A stretch of 64,000 bases of DNA from an uncultured Actinomycetota bacterium (GCA_963822135.1 CAWGGI010000010.1:129674-193673); one strand, 5' to 3'; positions 6,801 to 48,322 are shown, counted from the stretch's first letter. Notes: generated by a model from the sequence alone, not told the origin. Numbers and translations are program-made.

Positions 6801-6811
6801 AAGGAGGGACG

Positions 6812-15669: not shown

Positions 15670-15727
15670 GTTAATAGAATATTGATTCTGTTAACTTGCG
15701 TCGCGATGACAGAATCTGTATTCTGTC
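15670..15727. promoter_or_regulatory. two palindromic operator-like sites sharing the core AGAAT-N4-ATTCT
   Basis: O1 at 15670-15695 is GTTAAtAGAATattgATTCTgTTAAC. O2 at 15708-15727 is GACAGAATctgtATTCTGTC (perfect 8+8). Both lie in the TetR / binding-protein divergent intergenic region. Confidence 0.55.
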
Positions 15728-15776
15728 AGGCGGACCACCTGGTCCGTCGGACAACGCAGGAAGGGGGAACGCAACG

Positions 15777-23176: not shown

Positions 23177-23236
23177 CCGCCCGGACAGCTCGTAGGCCGG
23201 CGCGGGCCGGTGAGGTTCCATCGAAAGGGGGTCGGC

Positions 23237-24144: not shown

Positions 24145-24955
24145 TCAACCCCACATGTTCATACCGCAGTTGACCGGGATGGTCTGACCCGTGATGGCGG
24201 CGGCATCGTCGGAGGCGAGGAAGACCGCCACGCGCCCCACTTCGTGCTCCTCAGCGGGGCGCCCGAGCGAGTACATCTTCATCTCGGCGGCAAGTGCCTC
24301 TTCATAGGTGATCCCCGCAGCCTGCGCCCTGCCGCCGATCATCCCCACGAAGCGCTCTCCCCGGACCGCCGCCGGGGTGATGCAGTTGACCCGGATTCTA
24401 TGGGGGCCGCACTCGCGGGCCAGGGTCTCGGTGAGGCCGATCAGGCCCATCTTCGCGCAGCAGTAGGGGGCGCGCATGGGGTAGCCCGAGCGGCCGTCAC
24501 CGGAACGGCCGCCCTCCGACCCGATGATGATGATGGTCCCTCCTCGGCCGGCCGGGCACCATGCGCCTGAGCACCTCGCGGGACGCCAGCATGCTGCCGG
24601 TCAGATCCACGGCGATGACCTCGTTCCACTCGTCGAGGGTGAGGTCCCACAGGTGTTTCGTCGGTCCGCCGATGCCGGAGTTGTTCACGAGCACGTCGAT
24701 ATGACCGAAGGCATCGACGACCCTCGCCACGCCATCGATGACATCCTGCTCGTGCCGCAGGTCCATGGGGACCGCCAGAGCCTCGACGCCGAGGGCCCGC
24801 GCCTCCGCGACCGCCGCCTCCAGGTTCTCGAGATTGCGGCCGGCTACGCAGACTGTCGCGCCTTCCTCCGCAAAGCACCTCGCGATCGCCCGACCGATGC
24901 CGGAGCCGCCGCCTGTTATGAGAACCGTCCTACCTTTCAACCTTCCACCTGACAT
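24145..24955 (-). CDS. SDR family oxidoreductase (1 frame change near 24500)
   Basis: GRTVLITGGGSGIGRA, NNSGIGG, then YCCAKMG (YxxxK), VNCITPAAV, ITGQTIPVNCG. Confidence 0.8.
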
Positions 24956-25087
24956 AGAGGTCTGCTCCTCCTCGTCGCGTTGACTCCCGGCGGACGCGCC
25001 CGAGAGCACCGGTCCCAGTCTAGTCCGACGTACAGCAGCGTACTATGCCCGTGTGCGCTCAGCAATGCTTAACGATGATGTAAATTA

Positions 25088-25116
25088 TTGACAACGTCAC
25101 GGTTTGTCGCTAGGCT
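25088..25116 (+). promoter_or_regulatory. sigma-70/SigA-like promoter of the corrinoid operon
   Basis: TTGACA (25088-25093), 17 nt spacer, TAGGCT (25111-25116), in an AT-rich island about 95 nt upstream of ATG 25210. Confidence 0.5.
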
Positions 25117-25209
25117 AGGTCGCACCCACCACCCAGCCGCCGGCAAGAACCGGGCGGGCGGAATCACTGTGGGCAGAAATGGTCGATCATCAAGAGGAGC
25201 AGGAAGCCG

Positions 25210-25845
25210 ATGAACGAGACCTCACCCCTCGCCCAGGCCGTGGGCGACCTCGAAGAAGACAAAGCCGTGGTCTTGGTCCAAGACAAGCTCGCCAAAGGAG
25301 AGCCGGCCCTTTCAATCCTGGAAGAACTGCAGGCCGGCATGGCGATCGTGGGCGAGAGGTTCGAGGAGGGCGAGTACTACCTCTCCGAGCTCATCTACGC
25401 CGCCGACATCTTCAAGAAGGCGGGAGCTCCGCTTCAGCAAGAACTGGCTCAGGCCGCCCAGACCAGCTGTGGCACCCTGGTCCTGGGTACGGTCAAGAAC
25501 GATATCCACGACTTCGGCAAGGACATCGTGGCTACCATCATGAGCTCCAATGGCCTCAGGGTCATCGACCTGGGGGTGAACGTGGAGCCGCAGGCCTTCG
25601 TCGATGCCATCAAGGAATCGGGCGCCACGCTCGTGGGCATGAGCTGTCTGCTCACCACCGTCTTCGATGACATGAAGCAGGCCATCCAGGCCATCAAAGA
25701 CGCCGGTCTCCGCGACAAGGTGACCATCCTCATCGGGGGCGGTCCCGTGGACCAGGCTACCGCCGACTTCGTGGGCGCCGACTACTACTGCAAGACTGCT
25801 CAAGACGGAGTGGCCGCCGCCAAGAAGGTACTGGGGGTGAGCTAG
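25210..25845 (+). CDS. cobalamin-binding corrinoid protein (MtaC/MtbC/OdmA-like)
   Basis: Intact 211 aa. N-terminal B12-binding-2 helical cap, then the Rossmann domain with the DxHxxG..SxL..GG signature (NDIHDFGKD ... GMSCLLTT ... ILIGGGPV). Confidence 0.85.
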   Translation: MNETSPLAQAVGDLEEDKAVVLVQDKLAKGEPALSILEELQAGMAIVGERFEEGEYYLSELIYAADIFKKAGAPLQQELAQAAQTSCGTLVLGTVKNDIHDFGKDIVATIMSSNGLRVIDLGVNVEPQAFVDAIKESGATLVGMSCLLTTVFDDMKQAIQAIKDAGLRDKVTILIGGGPVDQATADFVGADYYCKTAQDGVAAAKKVLGVS

Positions 25846-27012
25846 ATGTCTGAAATGCAGCACGATAGTGCACCGGCCGCCGCTCCGGGCAACGGAGCGC
25901 CCGGCTTCGCCCCGCCCCCGCTCTTCTTGGAGCGGATGACCCGGCTCCAGACCGCGATCGCCTGCGGCACTCCCGACCGGGTGCCCCTCTCCCTGGTGAT
26001 GGACCTCTTCGCCGCCAACACCATGGGCGTGAGCTATACGGACTTCGTCGCCGATGTCGACACCGCCGGACGCACCATGCTCGGCGCCATGGAGAAGCTG
26101 GGGGACGTCGATTCCATCCAGTTCCCCACCTACGCTCCCGATGTGCTCGGCATGCTGTGGCTCGCGCCCATGAAGCTCCCCGGCCGCGACCTGCCCGAGC
26201 ACGCGCAGTGGCAGATGGACGAGCAGGTGCGCATCCAGCGCGAGGACTACGACCGCATCCTCGAGATGGGCTGGACCCCCTGGCTGGGGCAGTACATCGG
26301 GAAGTACCTGGGCGCCGCCGCCGCCGCCGGCCAGGCGCTGGCCGAGGCCGGTCCTCGGTGGACCATTGAGTACATGAAGCGAGGCTATGTCGTCTTCTCG
26401 CCCTTGACAGTCGACCACCCCTTCGAGCACCTGGCGGGAGGGCGCACGGTCAAGGAGTTCACCCTCGACCTCTTCCAGATCCCCGACAAGATCGAGGCTG
26501 TTCTCGAAGTGATCATGGCCGAGAAGCGGGAGCAGTCTCGCCAGTTCGTGCGGGCCGTCGGGCAACCTGTCGGTTATTGGGTGGGAAGCTGGCGGACGGC
26601 TCCGGAGTTTCTCTCCCCGCGCCTGTGGGACCGTTTCGTGTGGCCGTATATGAAGGAGCTCGTGGAGATCGTGGCCGAAGAAGGCGGCACTCCCGTGCTC
26701 CATTACGACGCCAATTGGGACAGGGAGATCGAACGGCTGAGGGAGTTGCCCGCGCGCAGGTGCGTGCTCGAGCTCGACGGCAAGACCGACATCTTCCGGG
26801 CGAAGAAGATCCTGGCCGGCCATATGTGCCTGCTGGGCGACGTGCCCCCGGCGCTTCTCACCCTGGGCACCGCAGATGAGGTCAAGGCCTACTGCCACCG
26901 GCTGCTTACGGACGTCGGCCCCGACGGCTACATCATGGCCATGGGCTGCGCCATCCCACCCGACGCCAAGTTCGAAAACGTCAAGGCGATGGTCGACTCG
27001 GTCAAGGGGTGA
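25846..27012 (+). CDS. URO-D/MtaA-CmuA family methyltransferase (paralogue A)
   Basis: Intact 388 aa. The start abuts the corrinoid protein stop. The C-terminal half aligns with 35899-37005 (HYDANWD..LELDGKTDI..GDVPPALLTLGTADEV..GCAIPPDAKFENV). Confidence 0.7.
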   Translation: MSEMQHDSAPAAAPGNGAPGFAPPPLFLERMTRLQTAIACGTPDRVPLSLVMDLFAANTMGVSYTDFVADVDTAGRTMLGAMEKLGDVDSIQFPTYAPDVLGMLWLAPMKLPGRDLPEHAQWQMDEQVRIQREDYDRILEMGWTPWLGQYIGKYLGAAAAAGQALAEAGPRWTIEYMKRGYVVFSPLTVDHPFEHLAGGRTVKEFTLDLFQIPDKIEAVLEVIMAEKREQSRQFVRAVGQPVGYWVGSWRTAPEFLSPRLWDRFVWPYMKELVEIVAEEGGTPVLHYDANWDREIERLRELPARRCVLELDGKTDIFRAKKILAGHMCLLGDVPPALLTLGTADEVKAYCHRLLTDVGPDGYIMAMGCAIPPDAKFENVKAMVDSVKG

Positions 27013-27023
27013 CAGGCGGCGGC

Positions 27024-27947
27024 ATGCAGCCTTATACGATCTCAGAGGTGGAGCGCGCGACCGGTGTCGGCCGCGACACGATCTATTTCTACATTCGTGA
27101 AGGGCTGCTGCCCCCGGCTCAGAAGGCCAGCGCCACCCGGTCCATCTACTACCGGTCGCACGTAGAGCTGCTGCGGGAGATCGTCCGGCTGAAGGAGGAG
27201 GGTGTCAGCCTCAAAGCGATTCGAGCCCGTCTGCGTGATCGCATCGAGGCCGCAGCGGATGCCGGGGTCGATCTGGTGGCCAAGCAGAGCGAGGACGCGC
27301 GCAACGCAATCCTGCAGGCAGCCGCGCGCCGTTTCGCCCAACGAGGGTACGAGCGGACCCGGATAGCGGATCTGTGCGAGGAGGTCGGCATCACCGCCCA
27401 AGTGCTCTACAGTCACTTTCCCAGCAAGCGGCATCTTTTCATCAACTGCTACGAGGTCTACTTCGCCTGGATGTACGCGCGTGTTCAGCCGGCCATCGAC
27501 GATACCGACGATCTCAACGCCCGTCTTGCTTGGCGCAGCTGGGCATCGTATGGCATCCAGGCGTTCAGTCCAGATCTCCAGGCGATGGCGCGAGCAGAGG
27601 CGATCCATCCCGAGAGCGACCTGCGTCCGCTGGTACGAGAGCTCTACGGCAAGATCCTGGAGAGCACGGTACAGGAACTCAGTGCGGAGCGGCGCCCAGG
27701 AGCCAATCCCGGGCTCTTCGAAGACGAACTCGTGGCTTATGCATTCGAGGGCGCGTTGGGGAACATGCAGATGCGGGCGTCGTGGGACGAGAGGTACAGC
27801 AGACGCGACGTCATGCGTACACTCCTCTCCATGTACATGGCCGTGCGTGCTGCCTATGACGGCCGGGTCGACCTGAGTGACGAGTGGCGGGTTGTCTCCG
27901 GAGTGGTCGACACACTGGCTGCCAGCAGCCCGACGCGAGCGACGTGA
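27024..27947 (+). CDS. MerR-TetR fusion transcriptional regulator
   Basis: Residues about 4-70 form a MerR HTH (YTISEVERATGVGRDTIYFYIREGLL..Y..HVELLREIVRLKEEGVSL). Residues about 95-140 form a TetR HTH (ARNAILQAAARRFAQRGYERTRIADLCEEVGITAQVLYSHFPSKRHLF), followed by a TetR-like C-terminal domain. Confidence 0.75.
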   Translation: MQPYTISEVERATGVGRDTIYFYIREGLLPPAQKASATRSIYYRSHVELLREIVRLKEEGVSLKAIRARLRDRIEAAADAGVDLVAKQSEDARNAILQAAARRFAQRGYERTRIADLCEEVGITAQVLYSHFPSKRHLFINCYEVYFAWMYARVQPAIDDTDDLNARLAWRSWASYGIQAFSPDLQAMARAEAIHPESDLRPLVRELYGKILESTVQELSAERRPGANPGLFEDELVAYAFEGALGNMQMRASWDERYSRRDVMRTLLSMYMAVRAAYDGRVDLSDEWRVVSGVVDTLAASSPTRAT

Positions 27948-28040
27948 CGCCCGACGTGCTGATTGCAGGGGCCGGTCTTTCTATACGCGTGGCTATCGTG
28001 ATTCCCAAGTCGGCGAAACCAAATAGATGGGAGTGACAGA

Positions 28041-29045
28041 GTGAAAGTTCTTGGCATCTCGTGCGGCCGGCGCATGAGCAACACCGAGATCATGGTCAAA
28101 GAGGCCCTGATGGGGGCCGAGGAAGCGGGTGCCGAGGTCCAGTTCCTGCGCCTGCAGGACTACTACATCAAGCCCTGCACCGGGTGCAACTCCTGTGTGG
28201 TCGATCTTATGGAGAAGCACGGCGGCGGCGCCTGCGTGCTCCGCAACGACGACTTCCCTTTCATCGACGACCTGATCATGGACTGCGACGCCCTCATCCT
28301 GGGCTCGCCCATCTACGAGAAATCCCCGAGTGGCCAGCTGAAATCGCTGCAGGACCGCATGGGCCCCAGCCACGACGTCGGCTTCCGCATGATCGCCCAG
28401 AAGATGCGCGAGGAGAAAGGCATCACCACCGGCACGGGTCCCGACCCGCGGGCGTTCAAGCCCCGCACCGCTTCGCTGATCGCCGTCGGCGGGAGCGAGT
28501 GGGATACCCTGGCGCTACCCACCATGGGCATGTTCGCTCTCACGCACCAGATGACCGTCGTCGACCAGATCCTCATCAACTGGATCGGGCTGCCCAAAGT
28601 CGTCACCTTCCACGAGGACAAGCTGGCGCGGGCGCACCGCTCCGGCAAGCACGTGGTGGAGAGCTATTTTAAGGGCGTGGAGAACGCGGAGTACATCGGT
28701 GAGGAAGGTCTCTGCCCGATGTGCCACTGCAAGCTCATCGAGATCCGCAACGGCCACGATCCCTATCCGGCTGTCTGTGGTATGTGCGGCGTGCGCGGCA
28801 CGTTGACCACCGACGCCGACGGCAAAGTCTTCTTCGACGTCAAGGAAGAGGACAGAGTCCACTCGCACCTGCTGCTCTCGGGCAAGTTCGAGCATCTGCA
28901 GGAGCTGGCGGACGTGTCCCTCAAGCCGCCGGCGAACTACCACGAGGTCAACGACCGGGCTAAGAAGTACCGCGAGTATCTGACTCCGATCAAGCCTCCG
29001 GCGCGCGACAAGGGCGAGAAGCCGGAACAGGGCGAAGAGGTCTAG
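28041..29045 (+). CDS. iron-sulfur flavoprotein (Isf)-like, flavodoxin-fold, with C-terminal 4-Cys ribbon domain (paralogue 1)
   Basis: Intact 334 aa. GISCGRRMSNTE, Cys cluster CTGCNSC..(12)..C, then the flavodoxin-like LILGSPIYEKSPSG. The C-terminal pair is CPMCHC...CGMCG. Confidence 0.6.
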   Translation: MKVLGISCGRRMSNTEIMVKEALMGAEEAGAEVQFLRLQDYYIKPCTGCNSCVVDLMEKHGGGACVLRNDDFPFIDDLIMDCDALILGSPIYEKSPSGQLKSLQDRMGPSHDVGFRMIAQKMREEKGITTGTGPDPRAFKPRTASLIAVGGSEWDTLALPTMGMFALTHQMTVVDQILINWIGLPKVVTFHEDKLARAHRSGKHVVESYFKGVENAEYIGEEGLCPMCHCKLIEIRNGHDPYPAVCGMCGVRGTLTTDADGKVFFDVKEEDRVHSHLLLSGKFEHLQELADVSLKPPANYHEVNDRAKKYREYLTPIKPPARDKGEKPEQGEEV

Positions 29046-29047
29046 CC

Positions 29048-29881
29048 ATGGCGTACTTCCCGGAATTCCGCCCCATGCGGAGCTTCATCCTGCAGAACTT
29101 CCGCTCCGACAACGATCGCCCGGCCATCTGGCGTTGGCTCTACAAGCAGCACGTGCCGGAGAGCATCTCTCAGTTCATGCCCTACTGCACCAAGTACTGC
29201 ACATACCACGCCCTGCCGCTACCCGAGGGCGCCAAGGACTTCGGTACCTACAACGGGATGATGACCGAGCACTACTGGCTCTTCAACATCTTCCAGGACA
29301 AAGGCACCGGCATGCCCCGCGGCCTGGCCTTTGGCGAGGAGTTCCCGGAAGACTTCATGGAGCGCACGAGCCAGCCGCCCAGCAAGGAACTGCGGCAGTC
29401 CGGTTGGCAGGGAAGCCGCGACGGTTACCATCCCATAGTCTTCTCGTTCGCACCCATCTTCTGGGAGGACGACTTCAAGGGGGAGGGCCGGCTCACCGAC
29501 GCCGGGCCCAACTACCGCTGGCTCTTCTTACTGAAATACCCGGACGGCGTCTCCGTCGATGAGGGCGACGCCTGGTTCAAGGAAGTGTTCGCGCCCGAGA
29601 TCTGCGCCAACCCCGAGGTGAACCGCATGATCTCCAGCCGCCAGCTGGACGACCCGCGGATCAACCCCTTCCAGCGCATCGTCGAGGTCTGGTTCGACGA
29701 CTCGGAGGGGTGGCGCCGCGCGATGGTGAAGAAGGCGGACACGTACACCAAGCCGGCGTGGGCGACCTGGGACCGGGCGCCCTTCTTCGAGCCCTACAAG
29801 GACTTCGTGGGGATCTTCATCCTCGACCGGCCCGACTCCGACCACCTGCAGCAATGGCGGGGGTATATCACGACGAGGTAG
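29048..29881 (+). CDS. hypothetical protein, possibly tandem EthD-like (dimeric alpha/beta-barrel) domains
   Basis: Intact 277 aa, 2 nt after the Isf-like gene. The second half (LKYPDGVSVDEGDAWFKEVFAPEI...RIVEVWFDDSEGWRRAM) resembles EthD-type domains. Recognised by eye only. Confidence 0.35.
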   Translation: MAYFPEFRPMRSFILQNFRSDNDRPAIWRWLYKQHVPESISQFMPYCTKYCTYHALPLPEGAKDFGTYNGMMTEHYWLFNIFQDKGTGMPRGLAFGEEFPEDFMERTSQPPSKELRQSGWQGSRDGYHPIVFSFAPIFWEDDFKGEGRLTDAGPNYRWLFLLKYPDGVSVDEGDAWFKEVFAPEICANPEVNRMISSRQLDDPRINPFQRIVEVWFDDSEGWRRAMVKKADTYTKPAWATWDRAPFFEPYKDFVGIFILDRPDSDHLQQWRGYITTR

Positions 29882-29935
29882 GCACGGGCCGCCGGTGGGC
29901 GTCTTGGCGATGAGGCACGCGCGGGGTCGAAGACA

Positions 29936-30580
29936 CTAGATTTCGGACTCCACGTCGTCTTGCGGCACCCGTTCTGGGCGGAGGGAGTCAAGCATCCGCT
30001 TGACGTTGCGGCTGAGGATGCCTTCGTCGATGAACTCTCGGGCGCCGGCCATGACGGAAATGTCCTCGACCCAGGCGAACATCTGCAGGGCCCAGGCCAC
30101 GTCTTCGGGGAGAACATCCTCGCTGATGGAGCCTTGACGCTTGCCTTCCTCGGCGATGGCGACAAGGGCCTTGTGGATGCGGAAGTCGGTGATCCTCAGA
30201 GGGGGGTCGCCGCTGTCTGGGTGTCTGGAGGCCAGTTCCAGAAAGAACGGGCGCACCACGCTATTGAAGTGCTCCCTCGCCCATGCGGCATGAGTCTTGG
30301 TCAACTCCTCCAGACGCTGCAGTGCATCTGGGTTTGCCGAGGAATCCACCCAGTTCATCGCGCGCTCGTTGGCCAACTGATTCGCCTCCGATAGCAACGC
30401 TGCTCGGTTATCGAAGTGCCGGTAGAGCGCCCCGGGGGTGACTCCGACGGCAGCCGCGATCCGCGATACCGTCGCACCCTCGAGGCCATGTTCGCTGATG
30501 ACCCGGAGCGTGGCGTCGAGTATCTCCTCGCGCCGCTCCTGCTGGCTCTTCCGCGTATGGCTCTTCACGTAGCTGGACAT
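29936..30580 (-). CDS. TetR/AcrR family transcriptional regulator (paralogue of 57500-58189)
   Basis: Intact 214 aa. The HTH is ATVSRIAAAVGVTPGALYRHFDNRAALL. Divergent from the liv-type operon. Confidence 0.85.
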   Translation of the reverse strand: MSSYVKSHTRKSQQERREEILDATLRVISEHGLEGATVSRIAAAVGVTPGALYRHFDNRAALLSEANQLANERAMNWVDSSANPDALQRLEELTKTHAAWAREHFNSVVRPFFLELASRHPDSGDPPLRITDFRIHKALVAIAEEGKRQGSISEDVLPEDVAWALQMFAWVEDISVMAGAREFIDEGILSRNVKRMLDSLRPERVPQDDVESEI

Positions 30581-30652
30581 GGCCTCACTCGTTCTGGATG
30601 TATCGACACCAGTCGACCAACGTTGGGTGGGAATCGACTGCGGGTCTGGCTC

Positions 30653-30681
30653 TTGACAGCATACAGTCCAACCGGTAGTTT
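30653..30681 (+). promoter_or_regulatory. promoter of the Liv-type ABC operon
   Basis: TTGACA (30653-30658), 17 nt spacer, TAGTTT (30676-30681). The perfect palindrome CCAACGTTGG at 30617-30626 is a candidate TetR site. Confidence 0.5.
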
Positions 30682-30781
30682 AGTAAAGCAGCATTTACGT
30701 GAATAAATTTTACGAGAAGTCTGGTCGCGTCCCTGACGCGATGCGAGCGTGGTAATTGCGGTATCCGCCAGGGGGGACCGA

Positions 30782-31659
30782 TTGGTCAAGTGGATCCAGT
30801 TGCTGGTCACCGGGATCACGGTGGGGAGCATCTACTCCCTGATCGCGCTGGGCTACGTGACCATCTACCGGACCTCACGCATCGTCAATATGGCCCAGGG
30901 CGCCTTTGTCATGTTCGGCGCCTTCTTCGCGTTTTCGTTCCTGTCTGAGCTCGGTCTGCCCTACTGGCTCTCAGCCATCCTCTCGATCGTGTGCGTGGTG
31001 CTCTGGGTGTGGTCATGTACCTGTTGGTGCTGCGGCCTCTCGTCAAGATCTCGCTCGTCTCCATCATCTTGGCCACCATGGCGCTGAGCATCCTGTTCGA
31101 GAACGTCGCGCTGCTCAAGTGGGGGGGCTACGGTAAGAGCGTCCCGGCTTTCACCGGCGACCAAGCCCTCTTCATCGGCAAGGTGGCGGTCTTCCCGCAG
31201 AGCCTGTGGGTGATCGGGCTGATGATCCTGGTGCTCATTGGCCTCTACGCGCTCATCAACCTGACCCGCGTGGGCAAGCAGATGACTGCGACGGCCAACG
31301 ACCCCGGCGCCGCCAGTCTGTCCGGCGTTAACACGGGCAGGATGATCCTCCTGGCCTTTGCCATCTCGGCCGCCATCGGGGCCCTGGGCGGTATCGCCAT
31401 CACTCCCATCAACTCGACCTCGTACCTTTCGGGAGGCATCTTTGCTCTGAGCGGCTTCGTGGCCGCCATCCTGGGGGGGTGGGGGTCGAGCGTAGGGGCT
31501 GTGGTGGGCGGCCTCACCCTGGGGATCATCCAGTCTTTGACCACGGGCTTCCTGCCCGCGGGATATCAGGACGCCATCGCCTATCTCGTGCTCATCCTCA
31601 TCCTCTACTTCCGGCCCGGCGGTATCATCGGTCAGCCTTCGGCCGAGGGCGAGGCGTGA
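30782..31659 (+). CDS. livH: branched-chain-amino-acid-type ABC transporter permease LivH (1 frame change near 31000)
   Basis: LVTGITVGSIYSLIALGYVTIYRTSRIVNMAQGAF.. then VMYLLVLRPL..ATANDPGAASLSGVN..LYFRPGGI. TTG 30782 is taken as the start. Confidence 0.8.
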
Positions 31660-32729
31660 TGCAGCGTCTCGCCTTCATGAAGAGCCAAAGCTTCCTCTTC
31701 AAGGCTCTGCTCCTCGTCATCCTGTTGATATGGCCACTCCTCTATCAGAGCGGATACGCCATGCGCATAATGACCACGGGTGGTCTCTACACCATCATCA
31801 CCATCGCGGTGGTCATCATCCTGGGCCAGGCCGGGCAGCTGTCGTTCGGCCATTCGGCCTTCTACGGCATCGGCGCGTACACCGCCGCGATGCTTACCAT
31901 GAAGGCCGGGTTCCCCACCCTGGCCGCTCTGGTCATCGGGGCCTTGGTGGCCGGTGTCATCGCTCTCATCGTGGGCCGGCCGGTGCTCAGGCTGCGCTAC
32001 TTCTATCTGGCCTTGGCTACCATCGGCCTGGGCCAGATCTTCCTGGTGCTGATCCAGCAACTTCGGACCATCACCGGCTCGACCACCGGGCTCGCCCCCG
32101 TGCCCTATCTCAGCATCTTCGGCTTCGATTTCAACACCAACCTCCGCCAGTACTACCTGGTGTGGGTGGCGGCCGCGATCATCATCGTCTTCATCGACCG
32201 GGCCCTCAAGTACCGGGCCGGGCGGGCTCTGCGCGCCATCGCCACCAGTGAGATCGCCTCCAAGAGCTTGGGCGTCCGCACGGCCAACTGGAAGCTTCTC
32301 GCCTTCGTTGCGAGCGCCATCATCTGCGGGTTGGCCGGTGGCTTCTACGCCTTCGTCAGCATGGCCGTCACGCCCGGGGCTTTCACCTTCACCGCCGCCA
32401 TCCTCCCCATCGTCATGATGCTGCTGGGCGGGGGGACCGTCTGGGGGTCGGTCGTGGGGGCCATCCTCATGACCTGGGTCATCAACGGGTTCTCCGGCGT
32501 CCAGCAGTACAGCGGAGTGCTCTATTCGGTCATCATGATCCTCCTGCTCATATTCCTTCCCGCCGGGCTGCTGCTGCGGCCCGATCAGCGGGCTCGTCTC
32601 AAGGCCCTGGTTCGGCGGGAGAGACTGCAAGAGCCGGCCCAATGCCTCGTCGCGGCCGAGGAAGGGCGAGGCTGCCGGCCAGTGCACCACGACGGTGGGC
32701 ATGCCCCTGGCCGTATCGCCGGGGGTTGA
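31658..32729 (+). CDS. livM: branched-chain-amino-acid-type ABC transporter permease LivM
   Basis: ATG 31658 overlaps the livH stop (ATGA). ILGQAGQLSFGHSAFYGIGAYTAA, RAGRALRAIATSEIASKSLGV. Confidence 0.8.
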
Positions 32730-33650
32730 GCCGGTCGGCCGCGGCCGAGATCGCCGGCGCGGGACAGGCTGCTGCAGCGGCGCCCGCCACGCGGACCGAG
32801 ACCTTGGATACTGCGGGCGCGCCGCTCCTGGCCATCAAAGACGTCTCTGTCCACTTCGGCGGACTCAAGGCTGTCGATGAGGTCTCGCTCGAGGTGCATG
32901 AGGGACAGATCGTGGCCCTCATCGGTCCCAATGGCGCCGGCAAGACCACGCTGTTCAACGCGGTCAGCCGCCTGCAGAAGCTTACCGGGGGTACGGTGGA
33001 GTTCGCTGGGCAAGAGGTCATCAAGCTTTCGACCGCGAACACCGCCCGCTTGGGTATGGCCCGGACCTTCCAGAACCTGCGCATCTACGTGAACATGACC
33101 GTGCTCGAGAACGTCCTGGTGGGCTGCCATCAGCACGAGCGCTCCGGGTTCTGGGCGGGCGGCCTGGGTCTGCCGCATCAGCGGCGCGAGGAGAAGGCAT
33201 CGCGCGAGCGGGCCCTTCGAGCCTTGGCGGCGGTGGGCTTGGCCGACAAGGCCTTCCTGCCGGCCGCCAGTCTGCCCTATGGCTCTCAGCGCCTGGTGGA
33301 GATCGCTCGGGCGCTCGCGTCTGAACCCCGGCTTGCTTCTTCTCGACGAGCCGGCTGCCGGCATGAACGCGGCGGAACGCGCCCATCTGGTGGAGCAGAT
33401 CCGCGGCATCCGGGACTCCGGCATCACCGTGCTGCTGGTCGAGCACGATATAGAACTGGTCATGGGGATCTCCGAGCAGGTCTACGTCCTCGACTACGGG
33501 CGGTTGATCGCCCAGGGCAGGCCCGAGGTGGTGCAGAACGACCCGGCCGTCATCGAAGCCTACTTGGGGGTCAAGCTGGAGCATCGGCAGGACCTGTGCC
33601 AGACGCGGGAGCTCACGGACGGCAGTTGTCCCGAGCCGGAAGACCTCCTG
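32726..33650 (+). CDS. livG: ABC transporter ATP-binding protein LivG (1 frame change near 33320); no stop before livF
   Basis: TTG 32726 overlaps the livM stop. Walker A GPNGAGKTT, signature LPYGSQRLVEIARAL, Walker B LLLLDEPAAG, C-terminus VIEAYLG. The frame then runs on uninterrupted into the LivF module. Confidence 0.75.
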
Positions 33651-34361
33651 GTGGTGGAGGGTCTCACCACCTCATATGGCTCCATCGAAGCCCTGCACGG
33701 GGTCTCGTTCGCCGTTCCCAAGGGAGAGGTGGTCACGATCCTGGGTGCGAACGGAGCGGGCAAGAGCACGCTGCTCCACACCATTTCCGGCCTGCTGCGG
33801 CCCAAAGCCGGCAGCGTCACCTACCAGGGGACCGACATCACCCATCTGGCGCCGGAGAAGATCGCGGCCCGCGGGCTGTGCCAGGTACCCGAGGGGCGGC
33901 GGCTCTTCCGGGAGCTCTCGGTGCAGGACAACCTGGTTGTGGGGAGTTCGGGCCGCAAGGATTGGCGGGGGACCCTGGCCGACGATATCGCCTACGTGTA
34001 TGAGCTGTTCCCCATCCTGGGCGAGCGGCGCAGGCAACCGGCGGGGACTCTCTCCGGCGGGGAGCAGCAGATGCTGGCCATCGGCCGGGCCCTCATCGGC
34101 CGGCCCCGATTGCTGCTCCTTGACGAGCCCTCCATGGGGCTGGCTCCGCTGGTGGTGGAGCGCATATTCGAGGCGCTGGCCCAACTCAACAAGGACGGTC
34201 TCACCATGCTGATGGTGGAGCAGAGCGCCGAGATGGCGCTCTCGCTGGCCCACCGCGGCATCGTCCTGCAGACCGGCCAGGTGGTCGTCTCCGGTCTGGC
34301 GGAGGTTCTCAAGACGGACGATCGCGTGCAGGCGAGCTATCTCGGCACAGCTCGACAGTAG
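33651..34361 (+). CDS. livF: ABC transporter ATP-binding protein LivF module (in frame with livG)
   Basis: LLVVEGLTTSYG, Walker A GANGAGKST, LSGGEQQMLAIGRAL, LLLLDEPSMG. An internal GTG at 33651/33654 could act as an independent start. Confidence 0.75.
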   Translation: MVEGLTTSYGSIEALHGVSFAVPKGEVVTILGANGAGKSTLLHTISGLLRPKAGSVTYQGTDITHLAPEKIAARGLCQVPEGRRLFRELSVQDNLVVGSSGRKDWRGTLADDIAYVYELFPILGERRRQPAGTLSGGEQQMLAIGRALIGRPRLLLLDEPSMGLAPLVVERIFEALAQLNKDGLTMLMVEQSAEMALSLAHRGIVLQTGQVVVSGLAEVLKTDDRVQASYLGTARQ

Positions 34362-34417
34362 AACGCACGCTTTCAGATAAAGGGGGAGGTAACGACGTGA
34401 AAGACAGGGAGGATCGG

Positions 34418-35722
34418 ATGAAGAAGCGTTATCTGACAATCGGGCTTCTCGTGCTCATGCTGGTGGTCGCCTTGGCGGCGGCAGCCTGCGGGGAGACTGA
34501 GGAGACCACCACCACGGCTGCTCCGAGCACCGAAACCACGGCTGCGCCGAGCACCGAAACCACGGCTGCTCCGAGCACCGAAACCACCGAGCCGGGCGGC
34601 CCGGCCACCGGAGCGCCGATCAAGGTCGGGTTCTCTAACAGCCTCACGGGGTTCAGCGCCGCCCCGGGCGTATCGACCGGTAATGGCGTCTCTCTGATGG
34701 TCGAACTCGTCAATGCCGACGGCGGTGTCAACGGTCGGCCGATCGAGGTCATCATGCTTGATGACAAATCGGACGTGCCGCCCGCCATCGCCAACATCAA
34801 CAAGTTGATCCAGGAAGACAAGGTCGCCGCGACCATCGGTCCGTTCGCCCAGTTCATGCAGGAACCGGCTCGAGGCATCGCCGAGCAGACCGGGACTCCC
34901 ATGGTGGGGATGGGCCCGGCCACTCTGGAGCAGTTGGCGGCCACCCCGCAGTATCAGATGAGCGTCATGCTGTCGGCGGGCCCGAACATCCAGGCCGACG
35001 CCCTGACCAAGATCATCAAGGCCAATGGTTGGACAAACATCATCGGCATCGCCGACGTGCTAGCGATTCATCAGGAGACTCTGGACGTGTTGGTGGAGAA
35101 CGGCCCGGCCGAAGGCTTCACCTTCACCAAACTGCCCGACACCTTCGGCTTCGACCAGACCGACTTCCAGCCGATCTTGAACAAGATCATGGAGGTCTAC
35201 AACGCACAGAAGCCTGACGCCGTCGTCCTCTACGTGAACCCGATCGCAGCGCCACCTCTATACAAAGGTCTGCGTTCGCTCGGCGTGGATGTTCCTATCC
35301 AAGGTAGCCCCGCTGCAGCTCACCCAGCGATCTTCGCCATGGGTCCGGAGGCTATCGAAGGCTTCCTGGTGCTGGACTCGGGCGGCCTGGTCAATCCCGC
35401 GAGCCTGCCGGATGACTGGCCTTTGAAGACCGGTCAGCTGAGCTTCTTCGATGCCTACAACGCCAAGTACGGCCAGCCGCCGGACTTCTTCGCCGCGGCA
35501 GGCGCCGACCTGGTCGCCGTGCTCGTTGAGGCCATGGAGCAGGCGGGAGGCCCGGACGACAAAGCCGCAATCGCGCAGGCGCTGATCAACCTGAAGGACT
35601 TTGTCGCCTTGCAGGGCATCATCAACTTCACTCCTGAGGCGACCTCTCAGGGCGTGACCGGTCAGATGGTGGAGTGGAAGGTGGAGGGCGGCCAGTTCGT
35701 GCTGGTGAACACCGTCAACTAG
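34418..35722 (+). CDS. Liv-type (family 4) ABC substrate-binding lipoprotein
   Basis: Intact. MKKRYLTIGLLVLMLVVALAAAAC lipobox, (TTAAPSTE)x3 linker, then IKVGFSNSLTG...GGVNGRPIEV. Confidence 0.8.
   Translation: MKKRYLTIGLLVLMLVVALAAAACGETEETTTTAAPSTETTAAPSTETTAAPSTETTEPGGPATGAPIKVGFSNSLTGFSAAPGVSTGNGVSLMVELVNADGGVNGRPIEVIMLDDKSDVPPAIANINKLIQEDKVAATIGPFAQFMQEPARGIAEQTGTPMVGMGPATLEQLAATPQYQMSVMLSAGPNIQADALTKIIKANGWTNIIGIADVLAIHQETLDVLVENGPAEGFTFTKLPDTFGFDQTDFQPILNKIMEVYNAQKPDAVVLYVNPIAAPPLYKGLRSLGVDVPIQGSPAAAHPAIFAMGPEAIEGFLVLDSGGLVNPASLPDDWPLKTGQLSFFDAYNAKYGQPPDFFAAAGADLVAVLVEAMEQAGGPDDKAAIAQALINLKDFVALQGIINFTPEATSQGVTGQMVEWKVEGGQFVLVNTVN
34511..34582 (+). repeat. 24-bp tandem repeat x3 encoding the (TTAAPSTE)3 linker
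   Basis: ACCACGGCTGC(T/G)CCGAGCACCGAA repeated three times, in frame. Confidence 0.9.
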
Positions 35723-35740
35723 AGACTGTACCAAGTGGCG

Positions 35741-35814
35741 CGGGACCGTCTCCCACCCCCCGGGGGCGGTCTCGACCAAGCGAACCGGGCCGGCGGCGGC
35801 GCCGCCGCCGGCCC
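35741..35814 (+). terminator. two GC-rich hairpins or palindromes after the binding-protein gene
   Basis: CGGGACCG..CCCCCCGGGGG..CGGTCTCG (35741-35774) and a perfect 28-bp palindrome GGGCCGGCGGCGGC|GCCGCCGCCGGCCC (35787-35814). No U-tract. Confidence 0.4.
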
Positions 35815-35898
35815 CGGCTCCTCGGACCACGTCGGCGTTTGGGTCAGCCAGAGAGCGTCGCTGCGAAGCCAAGCCAAGACGGCAAGGACAAAACGACC

Positions 35899-37005
35899 AT
35901 GGACTCATTCGAGAAGCTGCACCGGGCGATAGCCCTCCAGCCTACGCCGGAGATCCCGGTGTACCCGCATATCGTTACGTTCGCCGGCCGCTGCGCCGGC
36001 ATCACCCAGGAGAGACTGTTCAGCAGCAATCAGGCCTGGCTCGATGCCTGCGACAGGACCTTCGCCCGGGTTGGCAAACCCGACGTGGTCTTTCCCCTCA
36101 ACCCCCGCGACACCGCCTACATCGAGTCGATGCGGGTGAAGCTTCCCGGCAAGGAACTCGGCCCCGACGAGCCCTTCCAGTTCGTGGAAGACGAGTTCAT
36201 GCTGGCCTCCGACTACGACGTGATCCTCACGAAGGGCTGGAACGCCTGGAACACCGAGTTCATGAAGAAGATCCAGAATCCGCCGCTCACCGGACCCCTG
36301 GCCAAGTACAAGGTCCTGTGGGGCTTCATCCGCACCGGTATGAACACCGGCAAGAACATCAAGCATTGGGCGGAGCACGGGATGCCGGTGATGTTTCACG
36401 TCGGAGTGGCTCCGCCGTTCGACGTGTTCTCGCTGTCGCGCTCGCTTCGTCCCTTCTACCGCGATCTGTTCGACAACCCGGACAAGGTCAAGAAGGCCGT
36501 CGAGGTGGGCACCGACGCCATGATCGAGCTGGGCATCGCCAACGCCAAGCGGGCCAAGGGCGACCGGGTGGCCATCTTCGCCATGCGCTCGAGCGCCAGC
36601 TTCATCTCGCCCACGATCTTCGACGAGATCTCTTTCCCCTCGATCAAGCGGATGGTGGAGGCCTACCACGCCGCCGGCCTCACCTCGGTGCTTCACTGCG
36701 ATGGTAACTGGGACCTCATGATCCCCCGCTTCCTCGAGCTGCCCAAAGCAAGCTGCGTGGTGGAACTGGACGGAGCCACCGACATCCGCAAGGCTCGGGA
36801 GGTACTCAAGGGCCACCTGTGCATCAAAGGCGACGTCCACCACGCGCTGCTCGCCCTCGGCACCGCTGAGGAAGTCACCGCCTACTGCGGCGAGCTCCTC
36901 GAGTTCATGGGCCATGACGGCGGCTTCATCCTGGGCTCCGGCTGCGAGGTGCCCATCACGGCCAAGGTGGAGAACGTGGCGGCGCTCATCGCCGCGGTGC
37001 GGTAG
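35899..37005 (+). CDS. URO-D/MtaA-CmuA family methyltransferase (paralogue B)
   Basis: Intact 368 aa from MDSFEKLH. LHCDGNWD..VELDGATDI..GDVHHALLALGTAEEV..GSGCEVPITAKVENV is collinear with paralogue A. Confidence 0.7.
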   Translation: MDSFEKLHRAIALQPTPEIPVYPHIVTFAGRCAGITQERLFSSNQAWLDACDRTFARVGKPDVVFPLNPRDTAYIESMRVKLPGKELGPDEPFQFVEDEFMLASDYDVILTKGWNAWNTEFMKKIQNPPLTGPLAKYKVLWGFIRTGMNTGKNIKHWAEHGMPVMFHVGVAPPFDVFSLSRSLRPFYRDLFDNPDKVKKAVEVGTDAMIELGIANAKRAKGDRVAIFAMRSSASFISPTIFDEISFPSIKRMVEAYHAAGLTSVLHCDGNWDLMIPRFLELPKASCVVELDGATDIRKAREVLKGHLCIKGDVHHALLALGTAEEVTAYCGELLEFMGHDGGFILGSGCEVPITAKVENVAALIAAVR

Positions 37006-37046
37006 CAAGGCAAGGGAACAGACCTTTTTAGGATAGGAGAAGAAGC

Positions 37047-37961
37047 GTGAGCAAGACGATCGTCGGCCTCTCGTGTGGCCGCCGGAACAGCAACAGCGAG
37101 GTTCTCCTCAAGGCGGCGCTCATGGCCGCGGAGGAAGAGGGCTGCGAGACCAAGATCATCCGGGCGATGGACCACAAGGTGACGCCCTGTAACTCCTGCT
37201 GGACCTGCATGAAGACCGGCACGTGCGCCAAGGACGATACCGACTGGATCCTCGAACAGACCCTGCTCGGAGACGCCGGCGTCATCGTATCGGCCCCGGT
37301 CTACCACCTGCGCGCCTGCAGCTACCTCATGATCATCGCCGAGAAGACCAACCACATGTTCTCCCGCAAAGAGAACATCTTCGAGCGCAAGCGCCCGGGC
37401 GCGGCCATCTCCGTGGGCGGCTCCGGCTATGACGGCTGGACCAGCCTGGGGCTCACCTCCATCAACCTGTTCCTGCAGCACTTCACCACCCTCGTCGACC
37501 AAGTGCAGGTGGACCACTGCGCCAACATCGCCGCCGCGCTCACCCCCGACAACGCCTGGGCCATCGAGCGCTGCCGGCAGCTGGGCAAGAACATGGCCAA
37601 GACCCTGGACACGCCCTTCGAGGAGTGGAAGTTCCTCGGCCAGGACCCGGCCGTGGCCTGCCCGGTGTGTCACTGCAACATCCTCTACGTGGAGAAGGAC
37701 TTCCCGGAGATCATGTGCCCCACCTGCGAGGTGCACGGCACGATCTCGCCCGACGCGAACGGCAAGTACTCCGTCGCCTGGAACGAAGACGACGTCCGTG
37801 AGCCGCGCTTCTCCGGCCCCAAGGAGGCCCATCACCTGCACTGGATAACCGAGCACGAGTGGGTGGAGGAGCCCAAGCAACTGGCGCTGCCGGAGGTGCA
37901 GGCCAAGATCGCCGAGTTCAACGCTTGGGGCGCCTACATATCGGCGCCGAAGAAGCGGTAG
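37047..37961 (+). CDS. iron-sulfur flavoprotein (Isf)-like with C-terminal 4-Cys ribbon domain (paralogue 2)
   Basis: Intact 304 aa. GLSCGRRNSNSE, compact Isf cluster motif CNSCWTCMKTGTC (Cx2Cx2Cx5C). The C-terminal pair is CPVCHC...CPTCE. Confidence 0.6.
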   Translation: MSKTIVGLSCGRRNSNSEVLLKAALMAAEEEGCETKIIRAMDHKVTPCNSCWTCMKTGTCAKDDTDWILEQTLLGDAGVIVSAPVYHLRACSYLMIIAEKTNHMFSRKENIFERKRPGAAISVGGSGYDGWTSLGLTSINLFLQHFTTLVDQVQVDHCANIAAALTPDNAWAIERCRQLGKNMAKTLDTPFEEWKFLGQDPAVACPVCHCNILYVEKDFPEIMCPTCEVHGTISPDANGKYSVAWNEDDVREPRFSGPKEAHHLHWITEHEWVEEPKQLALPEVQAKIAEFNAWGAYISAPKKR

Positions 37962-37987: not shown

Positions 37988-38231
37988 ATGGCCGACTCAG
38001 AGCCACTATGAAGCCAAGACCCAACTCTCGCGCATGGTCGATCGGGCTGCCGCCGGCGAGGAAATCGTGATCTCTCGCAACGGCAGGCCGGTAGCCCGTC
38101 TGTGTCCGCTCGAGCCTAGGAAGCGGAACACAGTGAAGTTCGGGCTGCTCGACGGACTCATCGAGGTGGCAGACGATTTCGACGCGCCGCTCCCCGATGA
38201 CATCCTTGCGGCGTTCGAGGGGCGGGACTGA
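37988..38231 (+). CDS. Phd/YefM family type II antitoxin (1 frame change near 38010)
   Basis: ATG 37988 reads MADSEPL, then in the +1 frame YEAKTQLSRMVDRAAAGEEIVISRNGRPVARL..DFDAPLPDDILAAFEG. Confidence 0.7.
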
Positions 38232-38604
38232 GAGTTCTCTTGACACCCATCTGTTCCTCTGGGCAGTGGGGGTGAGTTCGAGGCTCACTCCTGCGGCGAA
38301 GACTGCGATCGAAGGCGCGGATGAGGTGTATGTGAGCGCGGCGTCGCTCTGGGAGATCGCCGTCAAGGCTGGTACCGGAAAACTGCGGGCAGATGTGGAC
38401 CGACTGATCGCAACAGTCGATTCGAGCGGCTTCCTCGAACTCTACGTCACAGCGGAGCACGCGGCGTTCGTGGCGCAGTTGCCTCATTATCACCACGATC
38501 CCTTCGATCGACTGCTGATCGCTCAGGCCATGACAGAGCCCCTCGTTCTTCTCACAGCCGACGAGTCGCTCGTTCAGTACACGGATCTGGTGCGGCTTGT
38601 CTAG
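38197..38604 (+). CDS. PIN-domain (VapC-like) type II toxin; start uncertain
   Basis: LDTHLFLWAV...ASLWEIAVKAGTGKL...HHDPFDRLLIAQAMTEPLVLLTAD. The expected start at the antitoxin stop (about 38229) is not in frame, so either an indel or the upstream ATG 38197 applies. Confidence 0.7.
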   Translation: MTSLRRSRGGTESSLDTHLFLWAVGVSSRLTPAAKTAIEGADEVYVSAASLWEIAVKAGTGKLRADVDRLIATVDSSGFLELYVTAEHAAFVAQLPHYHHDPFDRLLIAQAMTEPLVLLTADESLVQYTDLVRLV

Positions 38605-38843: not shown

Positions 38844-39299
38844 CTAGTCCTTCTTCAGCGGGGCAATCGCCTGGAAGGTCGGGTTGTTGAAGACGGAGTC
38901 CAGGCACTGGCCGCTCTCCTGCAGCTTGGCCTTGCCTACCGAGTAGCACACGCAGAAGGCCACTTCCATCAGCTCTTCGTCGGTTGCGCCGGCAGCCTTG
39001 GCGTTGCAGGCCTGCGGCAGAACGCCGTCCCAGTGGTTGTTCATCATGTACAGGCCGACCAGCAGCAGATATCGGGTCTTCGGCTCGAGGATCCCGCGAT
39101 CGAGCAGCCCAGTGAGCTGGTTCTGCGCGTACGTCTGCAGCATGTCGGGGCGGTTCTTCACCCAGAAGTCCAGGGACGGGTCACCCTTGTCTCCCGGCTT
39201 GTAGCCCGGGCGTTGCATGGCCCAAGACGCGAGGATCTCCTCCCCGGTCGTGGCTGCCTTCATGGCCTTGACGACTTCTTCTTCTTCCGGTCTTGGCAT
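38844..39299 (-). CDS. carboxymuconolactone decarboxylase (AhpD-like) family protein
   Basis: Intact 151 aa. LEPKTRYLLLVGLYMMNNHWDGVLPQACNAKAAGATDEELMEVAF is a CMD-domain-like core. Starts 2 nt after the upstream Fe-S oxidoreductase stop. Confidence 0.55.
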   Translation of the reverse strand: MPRPEEEEVVKAMKAATTGEEILASWAMQRPGYKPGDKGDPSLDFWVKNRPDMLQTYAQNQLTGLLDRGILEPKTRYLLLVGLYMMNNHWDGVLPQACNAKAAGATDEELMEVAFCVCYSVGKAKLQESGQCLDSVFNNPTFQAIAPLKKD

Positions 39300-39300
39300 C

Positions 39301-41535: not shown

Positions 41536-41552
41536 GACTTCCGCCCCGGTCC

Positions 41553-42542: not shown

Positions 42543-42555
42543 GGCTATCTCCTCT

Positions 42556-44357: not shown

Positions 44358-44391
44358 TCCGCGCCGGGTCGGGCCTCACCCATACGCAGCC

Positions 44392-44420
44392 GTAATACTT
44401 CCTGCCAGCCATGAAAAGTA
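44392..44420. promoter_or_regulatory. candidate LysR operator, copy B, upstream of the acyl-CoA dehydrogenase
   Basis: GTAATACTTCCTGCCAGCCATGAAAAGTA (TACTT-N15-AAGTA dyad) lies 74 nt upstream of ATG 44494. Confidence 0.55.
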
Positions 44421-44493
44421 CGGGTGAAGGGCCTTGCGTTGATAGGCGGGGGACTATCATGTGCGCTGGAGTACAAGAGCAGAAGGAGCACGC

Positions 44494-48321: not shown

Positions 48322-48322
48322 G

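Follow-up and report, generated by a model that had tools for sequence, protein, structure and literature searches.

Flavone reductase (FLR) of Flavonifractor plautii, represented by the structures 7D38-7D3B, is a flavin mononucleotide (FMN) enzyme; its hydrogenation of the C2=C3 bond is the opening step in the breakdown of flavones and flavonols (Yang et al. 2021, PMC7862272). The next enzyme of the gut flavone pathway is chalcone isomerase (CHI). Corrinoid-dependent methyl transfer uses a different set of proteins; for example, CdmB of Acetobacterium dehalogenans is a chloromethane-specific substrate:corrinoid methyltransferase (MT I), which belongs to the UroD superfamily beside the O-demethylase MT I proteins MtvB, OdmB, VdmB and MtoB (PMC13222342). 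Here, we describe positions 25,088 to 37,961 of a 64,000-nucleotide stretch of DNA (the window) from an uncultured Actinomycetota bacterium (GCA_963822135.1 CAWGGI010000010.1:129674-193673), where genes of both kinds occur together. With a probability of about 60%, judged from sequence, this interval is an island of genes with which an uncultured anaerobic actinobacterium of the Thermoleophilia/Gaiellales breaks down methoxylated flavones or related polyphenols. A first-pass annotation had described it as a corrinoid methyl-transfer cluster, which is supported by the domains of its corrinoid protein (CP) and URO-D proteins. That annotation did not list the gene at 29048-29881, a putative CHI gene, whose position next to an FLR homologue changed the interpretation of the cluster.

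The FLR homologue, FLR-A (28041-29045, plus strand; previously 'Isf-like A'), carries an FMN_red domain. Just one solved structure, 7D38, matches it, and the match spans the whole protein (phmmer E 4.9e-64, residues 1-319 against 1-307 of 310). Its identity to the F. plautii enzyme is 38%. This exceeds the 29.7% of the genetically validated FLR from C. ljungdahlii, the deletion of which abolished flavone consumption (PMC7862272). His271 of FLR, which hydrogen-bonds the flavone A ring (PMC7862272), has an equivalent in all 26 sequences of an alignment that includes FLR itself and the clades of both flavoproteins of the interval. Other pocket positions are substituted in FLR-A, namely Ile275 by Leu, Thr279 by Ser and Lys282 by Pro. 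Some close homologues of FLR-A and of the second flavoprotein, FLR-B, are named 'flavone/flavonol reductase' by JGI. This strong homology indicates that FLR-A is most likely a flavone reductase and not a new way of re-activating B12.

Both flavoproteins had been credited with an extra C-terminal four-cysteine ribbon. The ribbon is present, but it is not specific to this cluster. FLR-A has the motifs CX2CX2CX11C at its N-terminus and CX2C...CX2C at its C-terminus, and F. plautii FLR carries both as well (CTGCTAC...C and CPHCH...CCLCG in the alignment); thus, the 'extra 4-Cys ribbon' is FLR architecture and a family trait. In FLR, it forms beta-strand subdomain 1, ahead of the long substrate-binding helix. 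All eight cysteines are invariant or nearly so in the 26-sequence alignment. The FLR paper mentions no cysteine, iron-sulfur (Fe-S) cluster or metal, and FMNH2 was supplied via Fre (PMC7862272). Despite eight cysteines (an Isf-type motif and the ribbon) that are invariant even in the crystallised enzyme, published descriptions of FLR include neither a metal centre nor a physiological electron donor, so that its native cofactors and source of electrons may be a gap in the literature.

The CHI gene (29048-29881, plus strand, 277 amino acids; Pfam Chalcone_N 9.3e-26) begins 2 nt after FLR-A, so that two enzymes acting consecutively in the gut pathway appear translationally coupled here. Its product matches CHI of Eubacterium ramulus (PDB 4D06/3ZPH, 282 amino acids) over the full length with E 1.5e-52. 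Equivalents of His33, Tyr48, Thr71, His73, Trp75 and Arg125 are kept, among them the catalytic His33 and three further residues with described roles, Tyr48, Thr71 and Arg125 (PMC8361940). Enzymes of this type have two ferredoxin-like domains, in which His33 and Tyr48 are the catalytic residues. Strong homology thus assigns the gene, as a prediction, to the bacterial chalcone isomerases. In a related locus (L041), a 282-amino-acid EthD protein was considered as a hidden CHI and rejected, as it showed no similarity.

The methyl-transfer part of the interval begins with the CP gene (25210-25845, plus strand), the product of which combines a B12-binding_2 cap (6.2e-15) with a Rossmann B12-binding domain (3.2e-23). 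The DxHxxG/SxL/GG signature reported earlier is found as D98-I-H-D-F-G, S145-C-L and G176-G-G, and the protein scores below the MtbC, MtgC and MtaC equivalog cutoffs. The start codon of the first URO-D-superfamily methyltransferase gene, MT A (25846-27012, plus strand; Pfam URO-D 9.1e-28), directly follows the CP stop codon, and CP-MT A is a conserved pair in relatives. The second, MT B (35899-37005, plus strand; URO-D 2.4e-27), has a start supported by orthologues of 368-369 amino acids. As previously proposed, the two are paralogues (33% identical, E 1e-55). Homologues of MT A occur only in metagenome-assembled genomes (MAGs) of the uncultured Actinomycetota type, under generic names, and the MT B subtype is likewise known only from uncultured Actinomycetota and similar MAGs.

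The best solved match of both methyltransferases is CdmB, at 3e-21 for MT A (HemE, 5.6e-6) and 4.4e-19 over residues 79-367 for MT B (HemE, 3.6e-4; MtaA, 2e-5). The earlier view that neither is HemE holds: against the TIGR01464 equivalog cutoff of 302.95 bits they score 53.6 (MT A) and 23.7 (MT B). A thiol acceptor, as with MtaA-type enzymes, had also been considered possible and is now disfavoured. Second methyltransferases (MT II) that methylate thiols are defined by an HxCxnC zinc motif, which is absent here: aligned to MtaA, HxC reads H-Y-D in MT A (LHYDANWD...GC) and H-C-D in MT B (LHCDGNWD...GC), with the distal Cys present in both. The two proteins score 39 and 52 bits with MtaA_Meth, where the cutoff is 400. 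This His and Cys are missing from other URO-D paralogues of related loci and from the zinc-free CdmB. Taken together, MT A and MT B resemble substrate-side enzymes and are predicted to be MT I. In three related or distant loci (L020, L041 and L122, e.g. L122 11104-12188), a CobW-type G3E GTPase gene and a conserved open reading frame (ORF) of about 140 amino acids lie directly 3' of MT A-type genes. These neighbours hint that MT A, like some MT I O-demethylases, may be a metalloenzyme needing metal insertion.

FLR-B (37047-37961, plus strand; previously 'Isf-like B') is likewise an FMN_red flavoprotein. It is 27% identical to FLR-A (E 1e-31), and its best sequence match is again 7D38 (E 2.1e-15). 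An AlphaFold2 model built on 51 homologues, with a predicted local distance difference test score (pLDDT) of 86.9, returned 7D38 as the top PDB match in Foldseek (1.1e-15, 319 columns), followed by generic WrbA/azoreductase folds at 5e-6 and worse. The His271 equivalent of FLR (His263) is invariant, Ile275 is kept as Ile, Glu or His stands near the Thr279 position, and the substrate-pocket tail is highly conserved. No significant sequence match to an Isf structure was obtained. The cysteine motifs are CX2CX2CX5C at the N-terminus and CX2C..CX2C at the C-terminus. In the CX2CX2CXnC motif, the X5 of FLR-B falls within the Isf pattern, CX2CX2CX4-7C; the corresponding spacing is X11 in FLR-A and X10 in F. 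plautii FLR. With moderate support from these comparisons, FLR-B is most likely a divergent FLR paralogue, which may act as a second ene-reductase with another flavonoid or enone specificity.

The window has 62-69% G+C, and genes were chosen by third-position G+C (GC3). All genes of the first-pass annotation were recovered at their coordinates by Pfam and motif checks. Operon 1 contains CP, MT A, a MerR-TetR regulator gene, FLR-A and CHI, with gaps of 0, -4, 93 and 2 nt. The regulator (27009-27947, plus strand) is indeed the fusion described earlier, with MerR_1 at residues 9-76 and TetR_N at residues 101-145. Operon 2 comprises a LivH-type ABC permease (30749-31659, plus strand), a LivM-LivG-LivF fusion of a permease and two ATPase domains (31656-34361, plus strand), a lipoprotein-type substrate-binding protein (SBP) of a Liv-type importer (34397-35722, plus strand; Peripla_BP_6 1.1e-45), MT B and FLR-B, together with a divergent TetR-family regulator gene (29936-30580, minus strand; TetR_N 1.6e-16). 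The operons are co-directional, each with its own regulators. The Liv importer with its own TetR had been regarded as inserted between two modules; the importer and regulator are confirmed, whereas the insertion is not, as the transporter lies on the same strand as MT B and FLR-B with short gaps between them and recurs in 19 of 22 related loci.

The Liv genes contain three frameshifts, one near 31003 in livH and two in the fusion gene (~32660-32792 and ~33324-33334), relative to intact orthologues that are 90-98% identical by tblastn. The livH gene matches its intact orthologue in the related locus L001 at 94-98% in two frames, and the fusion gene matches at 90-95% in three; relatives encode LivMGF as a single protein of 906-909 amino acids. 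Other genes of the window are frameshifted too, at 1-1572, 3000-5329, 8974-10220 and 24145-25009 (minus strand); these encode alanine dehydrogenase, HdrA, a BD-FAE esterase and a short-chain dehydrogenase/reductase (SDR). Because identity stays just as high to either side of every shift, the shifts are read as long-read indel errors, which probably account for them better than pseudogenisation.

The linkage of these genes was compared across 22 non-redundant related Thermoleophilia/Gaiellales loci, including the window itself. Close relatives of FLR-A (68-95% identity) were found solely in MAGs assigned to Thermoleophilia, Gaiellales or unclassified Actinomycetota, and one long-read survey contributed many of these. 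FLR genes are present in all 22 loci, Liv ATPase genes in 19, URO-D in 18, CHI and SBP in 16 each, MerR-TetR in 12 and CP in 10, and URO-D directly abuts FLR-A in 11. Gene order is shuffled. For instance, L001 has CP, MT A and MerR-TetR, then the Liv genes, then FLR-A, CHI and FLR-B, and further on URO-D. The proposal that each methyltransferase module carries a flavoprotein is therefore true at this locus but not conserved, and a pattern of one flavoprotein per methyltransferase was rejected, as both methyltransferase genes of L001 lie away from its flavoprotein genes. L005 encodes TetR, FLR and CHI without any corrinoid gene; in L007 and L010 an OYE-type enoate reductase gene follows CHI, which reproduces the FLR-CHI-EnoR trio of gut bacteria. 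A small ORF similar to DAPG/phloretin hydrolases recurs beside FLR or CHI.

The FLR-B-like family was analysed in 80 metagenome loci by means of hidden Markov models built from the cluster proteins. CP or URO-D genes lie within 5 kb of 16 of the 22 members of the FLR-A clade (at least 65% identity) and abut 12; CHI abuts 14. In the FLR-B clade, at the same threshold, the figures are 15 within 5 kb and 12 abutting among 17 members. At 50-65% identity to FLR-B (n = 6), neither occurs within 5 kb and FAD_binding_2 is found in four loci. Below 50% (n = 44), CP or URO-D lies within 5 kb in eight loci and abuts in five; EnoR, FAD_binding_2 or CHI accompanies 17, and an enoate reductase gene directly abuts the FLR-B-like gene in nine. 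The genomic association of the flavoproteins with corrinoid genes, an expectation of the first-pass annotation, is thus confirmed in this lineage. The link is real but clade-specific, and the wider family sits with ene-reductases.

Two further protein types were seen beside these genes. An LVIVD-repeat beta-propeller protein of about 450 amino acids stands next to FLR or URO-D in eight related clusters (L007 8582-9943, L041 14648-15958, L046 4005-5345 and others). In more distant metagenome loci, a Flavodoxin_3 protein of about 320 amino acids with a 4Fe-4S dicluster domain is encoded beside FLR-like genes (L082 198-1190, L120 10141-11094, L097, L100 and L066) and, where visible, also beside CP or URO-D (L082, L120).

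The cluster had been reported to lack an activase and a pterin-binding methyltransferase, and this extends to the whole window. Domain scans of the GC3-supported ORFs across the 64 kb gave no match to RACo/RamA, Pterin_bind, MtrH or DUF1638, and tblastn of the window with a related pterin MT II gave nothing. Additionally, no cobalamin riboswitch (Rfam scan) and no tRNAs were found in the window. No activase appeared among the scanned ORFs of related loci. Twenty unassigned ORFs near CP or URO-D in these loci were scanned for an activase or MT II, and only L062 gave Pterin_bind, in a canonical triad of URO-D, CP and Pterin_bind beside FLR genes. The others encode acyl-CoA ligases, PepX-type hydrolases, histidine kinases, NuoF-like proteins and flavodoxin-Fer4 proteins. 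An ORF starting with a Fer2 domain 3' of FLR-B in L003, L016 and L025 was considered as a RACo-type activase and rejected, since Pfam identifies it as a NuoG/GltD-like Fe-S flavoprotein. A DUF1638 gene is present in the distant locus L122 (7005-7751, with identical loci L123-L126), beside two CP genes and an MT A-like URO-D gene.

Activases encoded far from the proteins that they serve are well documented. A. dehalogenans has 26 methyltransferase systems and four activases, and cdmBCA, without an activase of its own, uses one encoded elsewhere (PMC13222342). In Phaeobacter and Ruegeria, the gene of the corrinoid protein lies apart from the RamA-like and DUF1638 genes for re-activation (PMC5764234, PMC12478193). 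DUF1638 is genetically linked to B12 re-activation in alpha-proteobacteria, where its distribution mirrors that of RamA-like proteins (PMC5764234). As activases are commonly unlinked, their absence here is not unusual; by this analogy, the lack of an activase in the cluster would be ordinary and not evidence of new chemistry.

Homology and gene context suggest the following course of degradation. The substrate, a methoxylated flavone or a related polyphenol, would enter through the Liv-type ABC system. As substrate-specific MT I enzymes, MT A and MT B would pass the methyl group of an aryl methyl ether to the Co(I) form of CP, yielding CH3-Co(III) and a free phenol. An MT II encoded outside the window would take the methyl group to tetrahydrofolate or another acceptor, and an activase, also encoded outside, would re-reduce occasional Co(II). 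On strong homology, FLR-A would reduce the flavone C2=C3 bond to give the flavanone and CHI would open the C ring to the chalcone; with moderate support, FLR-B would act as a second ene-reductase of different specificity. Later steps (ene-reduction, hydrolysis and phloroglucinol/pyrogallol metabolism) may be encoded nearby or elsewhere, and TetR and the MerR-TetR fusion would control the two operons.

Beyond the interval, the window encodes a molybdopterin enzyme similar to pyrogallol hydroxytransferase, with an AhtL-like first domain (45790-48321), and an Fe-S beta subunit (48323-49144), suggesting that trihydroxybenzenes are metabolised nearby. BD-FAE (feruloyl-esterase-type) genes lie at 19010-19942 and about 8974-10220. 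An SDR at 23210-23947 was considered as a phloroglucinol reductase and rejected, as it gave generic SDR matches only. The regions 38844-43332 (minus strand) and 43464-45723 (plus strand) encode a CMD-like protein, a 744-amino-acid membrane HdrD-like CCG/Fe-S oxidoreductase, EtfBA, an acyl-CoA dehydrogenase and a LysR regulator. Of these genes, the CMD, HdrD-like and Etf ones are conserved as a set beside the cluster in L001, L021 and L023. At 1642-8973 lies a Flx/Hdr-like electron-bifurcation set, several genes of which are frameshifted, with HdrC, HdrB (CCG), HdrA, MvhD/FlpD, Fer4_22 proteins and a DHODB-type NAD/FAD subunit. NrfH-like (NapC/NirT) and NrfA (cytochrome c552) nitrite reductase genes at 51101-52927 point to an anaerobic respiratory lifestyle. 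Taken together, the pyrogallol-hydroxytransferase-like enzyme, esterases, SDRs, Etf with the membrane Fe-S oxidoreductase, Flx/Hdr and NrfHA fit a polyphenol island in an anaerobe.

Further genes of the window encode proteins of other kinds. A PIN-domain toxin gene (38197-38604, plus strand) lies 3' of FLR-B. In L001, too, FLR-B is followed by a PIN gene, 78% identical to the present one and forming a pair with a PhdYeFM antitoxin gene. Two small paralogous proteins (13441-13869, minus strand; 55333-55818, plus strand) have no Pfam match, share the C-terminal sequence VDRPIFHFS(S/T)G and flank the polyphenol island. A Kelch-repeat beta-propeller protein (49697-50830) has a Pro/Thr-rich N-terminal linker similar to those of the binding proteins at 34397-35722 and 15696-16430.

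Several points weigh against the interval being an island for methoxylated flavones. The substrates of its enzymes are ones that we infer; Thr279 and Lys282 of FLR are not strictly kept (Ser and Pro in FLR-A), and the A-ring contacts of CHI differ from those in E. ramulus (Gln69 to Met, Gln101 to Thr). Neither MT II nor an activase was found in the 64 kb searched, three frameshifts interrupt the transporter genes, and a full-text search of the accessible literature found no description of such a combined cluster. Moreover, the FLR-B clade hugs URO-D and CP (12 of 17 loci) more tightly than pathway linkage alone requires, and some modules show no CHI or FLR-A in the visible range. Alternatively, the cluster might act mainly on methoxylated phenylpropanoids other than flavonoids or on lignin monomers (ferulate, sinapate or syringate, for example); MT I and CP would demethylate them and FLR-B would reduce a cinnamoyl-type double bond, leaving FLR-A and CHI as a neighbouring but separate flavonoid module. 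Aromatic acids are common ligands of Peripla_BP_6 binding proteins, which agrees with this alternative, as do the BD-FAE genes (19010-19942 and about 8974-10220), the pyrogallol-hydroxytransferase-like enzyme (45790-49144) and the adjoining Etf/acyl-CoA-dehydrogenase set. The known substrates of this MT I clade are, in addition, simple methoxylated aromatics (PMC13222342). We consider it rather unlikely, since FLR-A and CHI share an operon with CP and MT A at gaps of 0, -4, 93 and 2 nt, and URO-D adjoins FLR-A in half of the 22 loci (11). It is hardly probable at all that the cluster is decaying, with a non-functional transporter and possibly a non-functional pathway. The three frameshifts of the Liv genes, and a fourth in the neighbouring SDR gene, would suit such decay; however, amino acid identity to intact orthologues is 90-98% around every shift, unrelated genes here and there in the window are hit as well (Ald, HdrA, esterase), and the relatives are long-read 'MFD' MAGs, a pattern typical of indel sequencing errors.

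Two other explanations concern the chemistry of the cobalt centre. The first-pass annotation saw in the duplicated Isf-like proteins a new route to Co(I). For FLR-A this view is not supported, given its full-length FLR homology and its coupling to CHI. The FLR-B clade might still be a dedicated redox partner of URO-D and CP: an Isf-type Fe-S flavoprotein keeping or returning cobalt to Co(I), which would replace or feed a RamA/RACo activase. FLR-B would then be not, or not only, a flavonoid reductase but an electron donor for the reduction of Co(II) to Co(I), ATP-independent or activase-feeding, in a lineage without in-cluster activases. In 12 of 17 loci, a gene of the FLR-B clade directly adjoins a URO-D or CP gene of its own strand, and in 15 the distance is at most 5 kb, with several gene orders; the L041 module (SBP, UROD, FLR-B, CP, UROD), L044 and L046 show no CHI in the visible range; RACo is absent from scanned ORFs of about 30 loci with CP or URO-D; and FLR-B has the canonical Isf motif CX2CX2CX5C. 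Flavodoxin, in addition, is known to re-activate the cobalamin of MetH. Co(II)/Co(I) reduction nevertheless normally needs coupling to ATP or S-adenosylmethionine, and FLR-B has no domain for either. Its only strong homologue is a substrate ene-reductase, the flavone-A-ring-binding His271 is invariant and the pocket tail is highly conserved. Distant family members sit beside enoate reductases, FAD_binding_2 or CHI, with CP or URO-D near just 8 of 50, and FLR-B occurs without corrinoid genes in L040 and L042. A distant MT A-CP locus, furthermore, carries DUF1638, a family that co-occurs with RamA-like activases. A role of FLR-B in cobalt reduction is consequently very unlikely, and that of a second ene-reductase is preferred.

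Equally improbable is a self-contained methyl transfer, in which one URO-D subtype, with the MT A type as candidate (His/Asp/Cys site, CobW in relatives), would serve as MT II to a thiol or other acceptor and the other paralogues as MT I. MT A and MT B keep a His and a distal Cys aligned with the MtaA zinc ligands, which other paralogues and CdmB lack; CobW follows MT A-type genes in three loci, and a pterin MT II was seen in just one. Yet the thiol-activating HxCxnC motif is replaced by HYD and HCD, and the MtaA/MtbA equivalog scores are far under the cutoff. Zinc occurs in some MT I O-demethylases too (PMC13222342). With only A and B types in the window, an MT I would be missing, and in L122 the MT A-like protein is the sole URO-D beside two CP genes.

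All components of the interval belong to known families. The novelty lies in how they are combined, and the combination conserved, in an uncultured soil lineage: FLR and CHI stand together with MT I/CP modules, a Liv importer and a MerR-TetR fusion. The second clade of FLR is new as well, as are the two uncharacterised URO-D subtypes, MT A and MT B. If the island does degrade methoxylated flavones, the enzymes FLR and CHI of gut Clostridia would also be widespread in uncultured Thermoleophilia/Gaiellales of soil and sediment, where they would be directly connected with B12-dependent O-demethylases and have an importer of their own. Such a link would offer a genetic handle on the anaerobic turnover of methoxylated plant flavonoids in soil, which matters for the polyphenol 'enzyme latch' and for signalling in the rhizosphere. 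Uncharacterised candidates for biocatalysis would be the second FLR clade and the two subtypes of MT I, MT A and MT B.

Compared with known systems, the methyl-transfer genes are closest to MtvABC of Moorella, OdmABCD/Vdm of Acetobacterium, MtoABCD of archaea and CdmBCA. They share UroD-fold MT I proteins beside an MtbC/MtgC-like corrinoid protein and the use of one CP by several MT I genes; in E. callanderi, one system has two MT-I genes (PMC12915777). The present genes differ in the H-x-D...C motif of MT A and MT B, in having no MT II or activase in the cluster or the 64-kb window, and in lying among genes for flavonoid enzymes, a Liv transporter and a MerR-TetR fusion. With the methylcobamide:coenzyme M methyltransferases MtaA/MtbA (MT II, PDB 4AY7), they share the UroD fold and, in the alignment of MT B (E 2e-5), the positions of the His and the distal Cys; they differ in the zinc/thiol motif, here HCD or HYD, and in scores of 39-52 bits against 400. 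To our knowledge, coenzyme M is not expected in Actinomycetota. The split methionine synthase and MtgBCD systems, with an unlinked RamA-like (DUF4445) protein and DUF1638, provide a precedent for a distant activase, and L122 likewise has DUF1638; they differ in their MttB/MtgB-type MT I and their aerobic proteobacterial hosts, and the present window has no DUF1638 (PMC5764234, PMC12478193).

Similar parallels exist for the flavoproteins and CHI. Isf of Methanosarcina thermophila shares the FMN_red/flavodoxin-like fold and a compact N-terminal cysteine motif, which binds a [4Fe-4S] cluster in Isf and is exactly CX2CX2CX5C in FLR-B; it differs in having no C-terminal ribbon and long-helix extension, the features that define FLR. 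Fe-S binding is not reported for FLR, and in FLR-A and FLR-B the motif is at most a putative cluster site. CHI resembles the E. ramulus enzyme in its full-length match, its catalytic residues and its location next to an FLR gene, and differs by Met and Thr in place of Gln69 and Gln101 and by a shorter lid region. FLR-B shares the architecture of F. plautii FLR, its top fold match, and the retained His271, at an identity of about 22-27% and without the insertion of about 20 residues found in the FLR-A/FLR group. FLR-A shares with F. plautii FLR the WrbA-like FMN domain, the four-strand CX2C..CX2C subdomain, the long C-terminal helix, the N-terminal CX2CX2CXnC motif and His271. A further difference lies in the setting: here the genes belong to Actinomycetota instead of gut Clostridia and are embedded in corrinoid methyltransferase operons.

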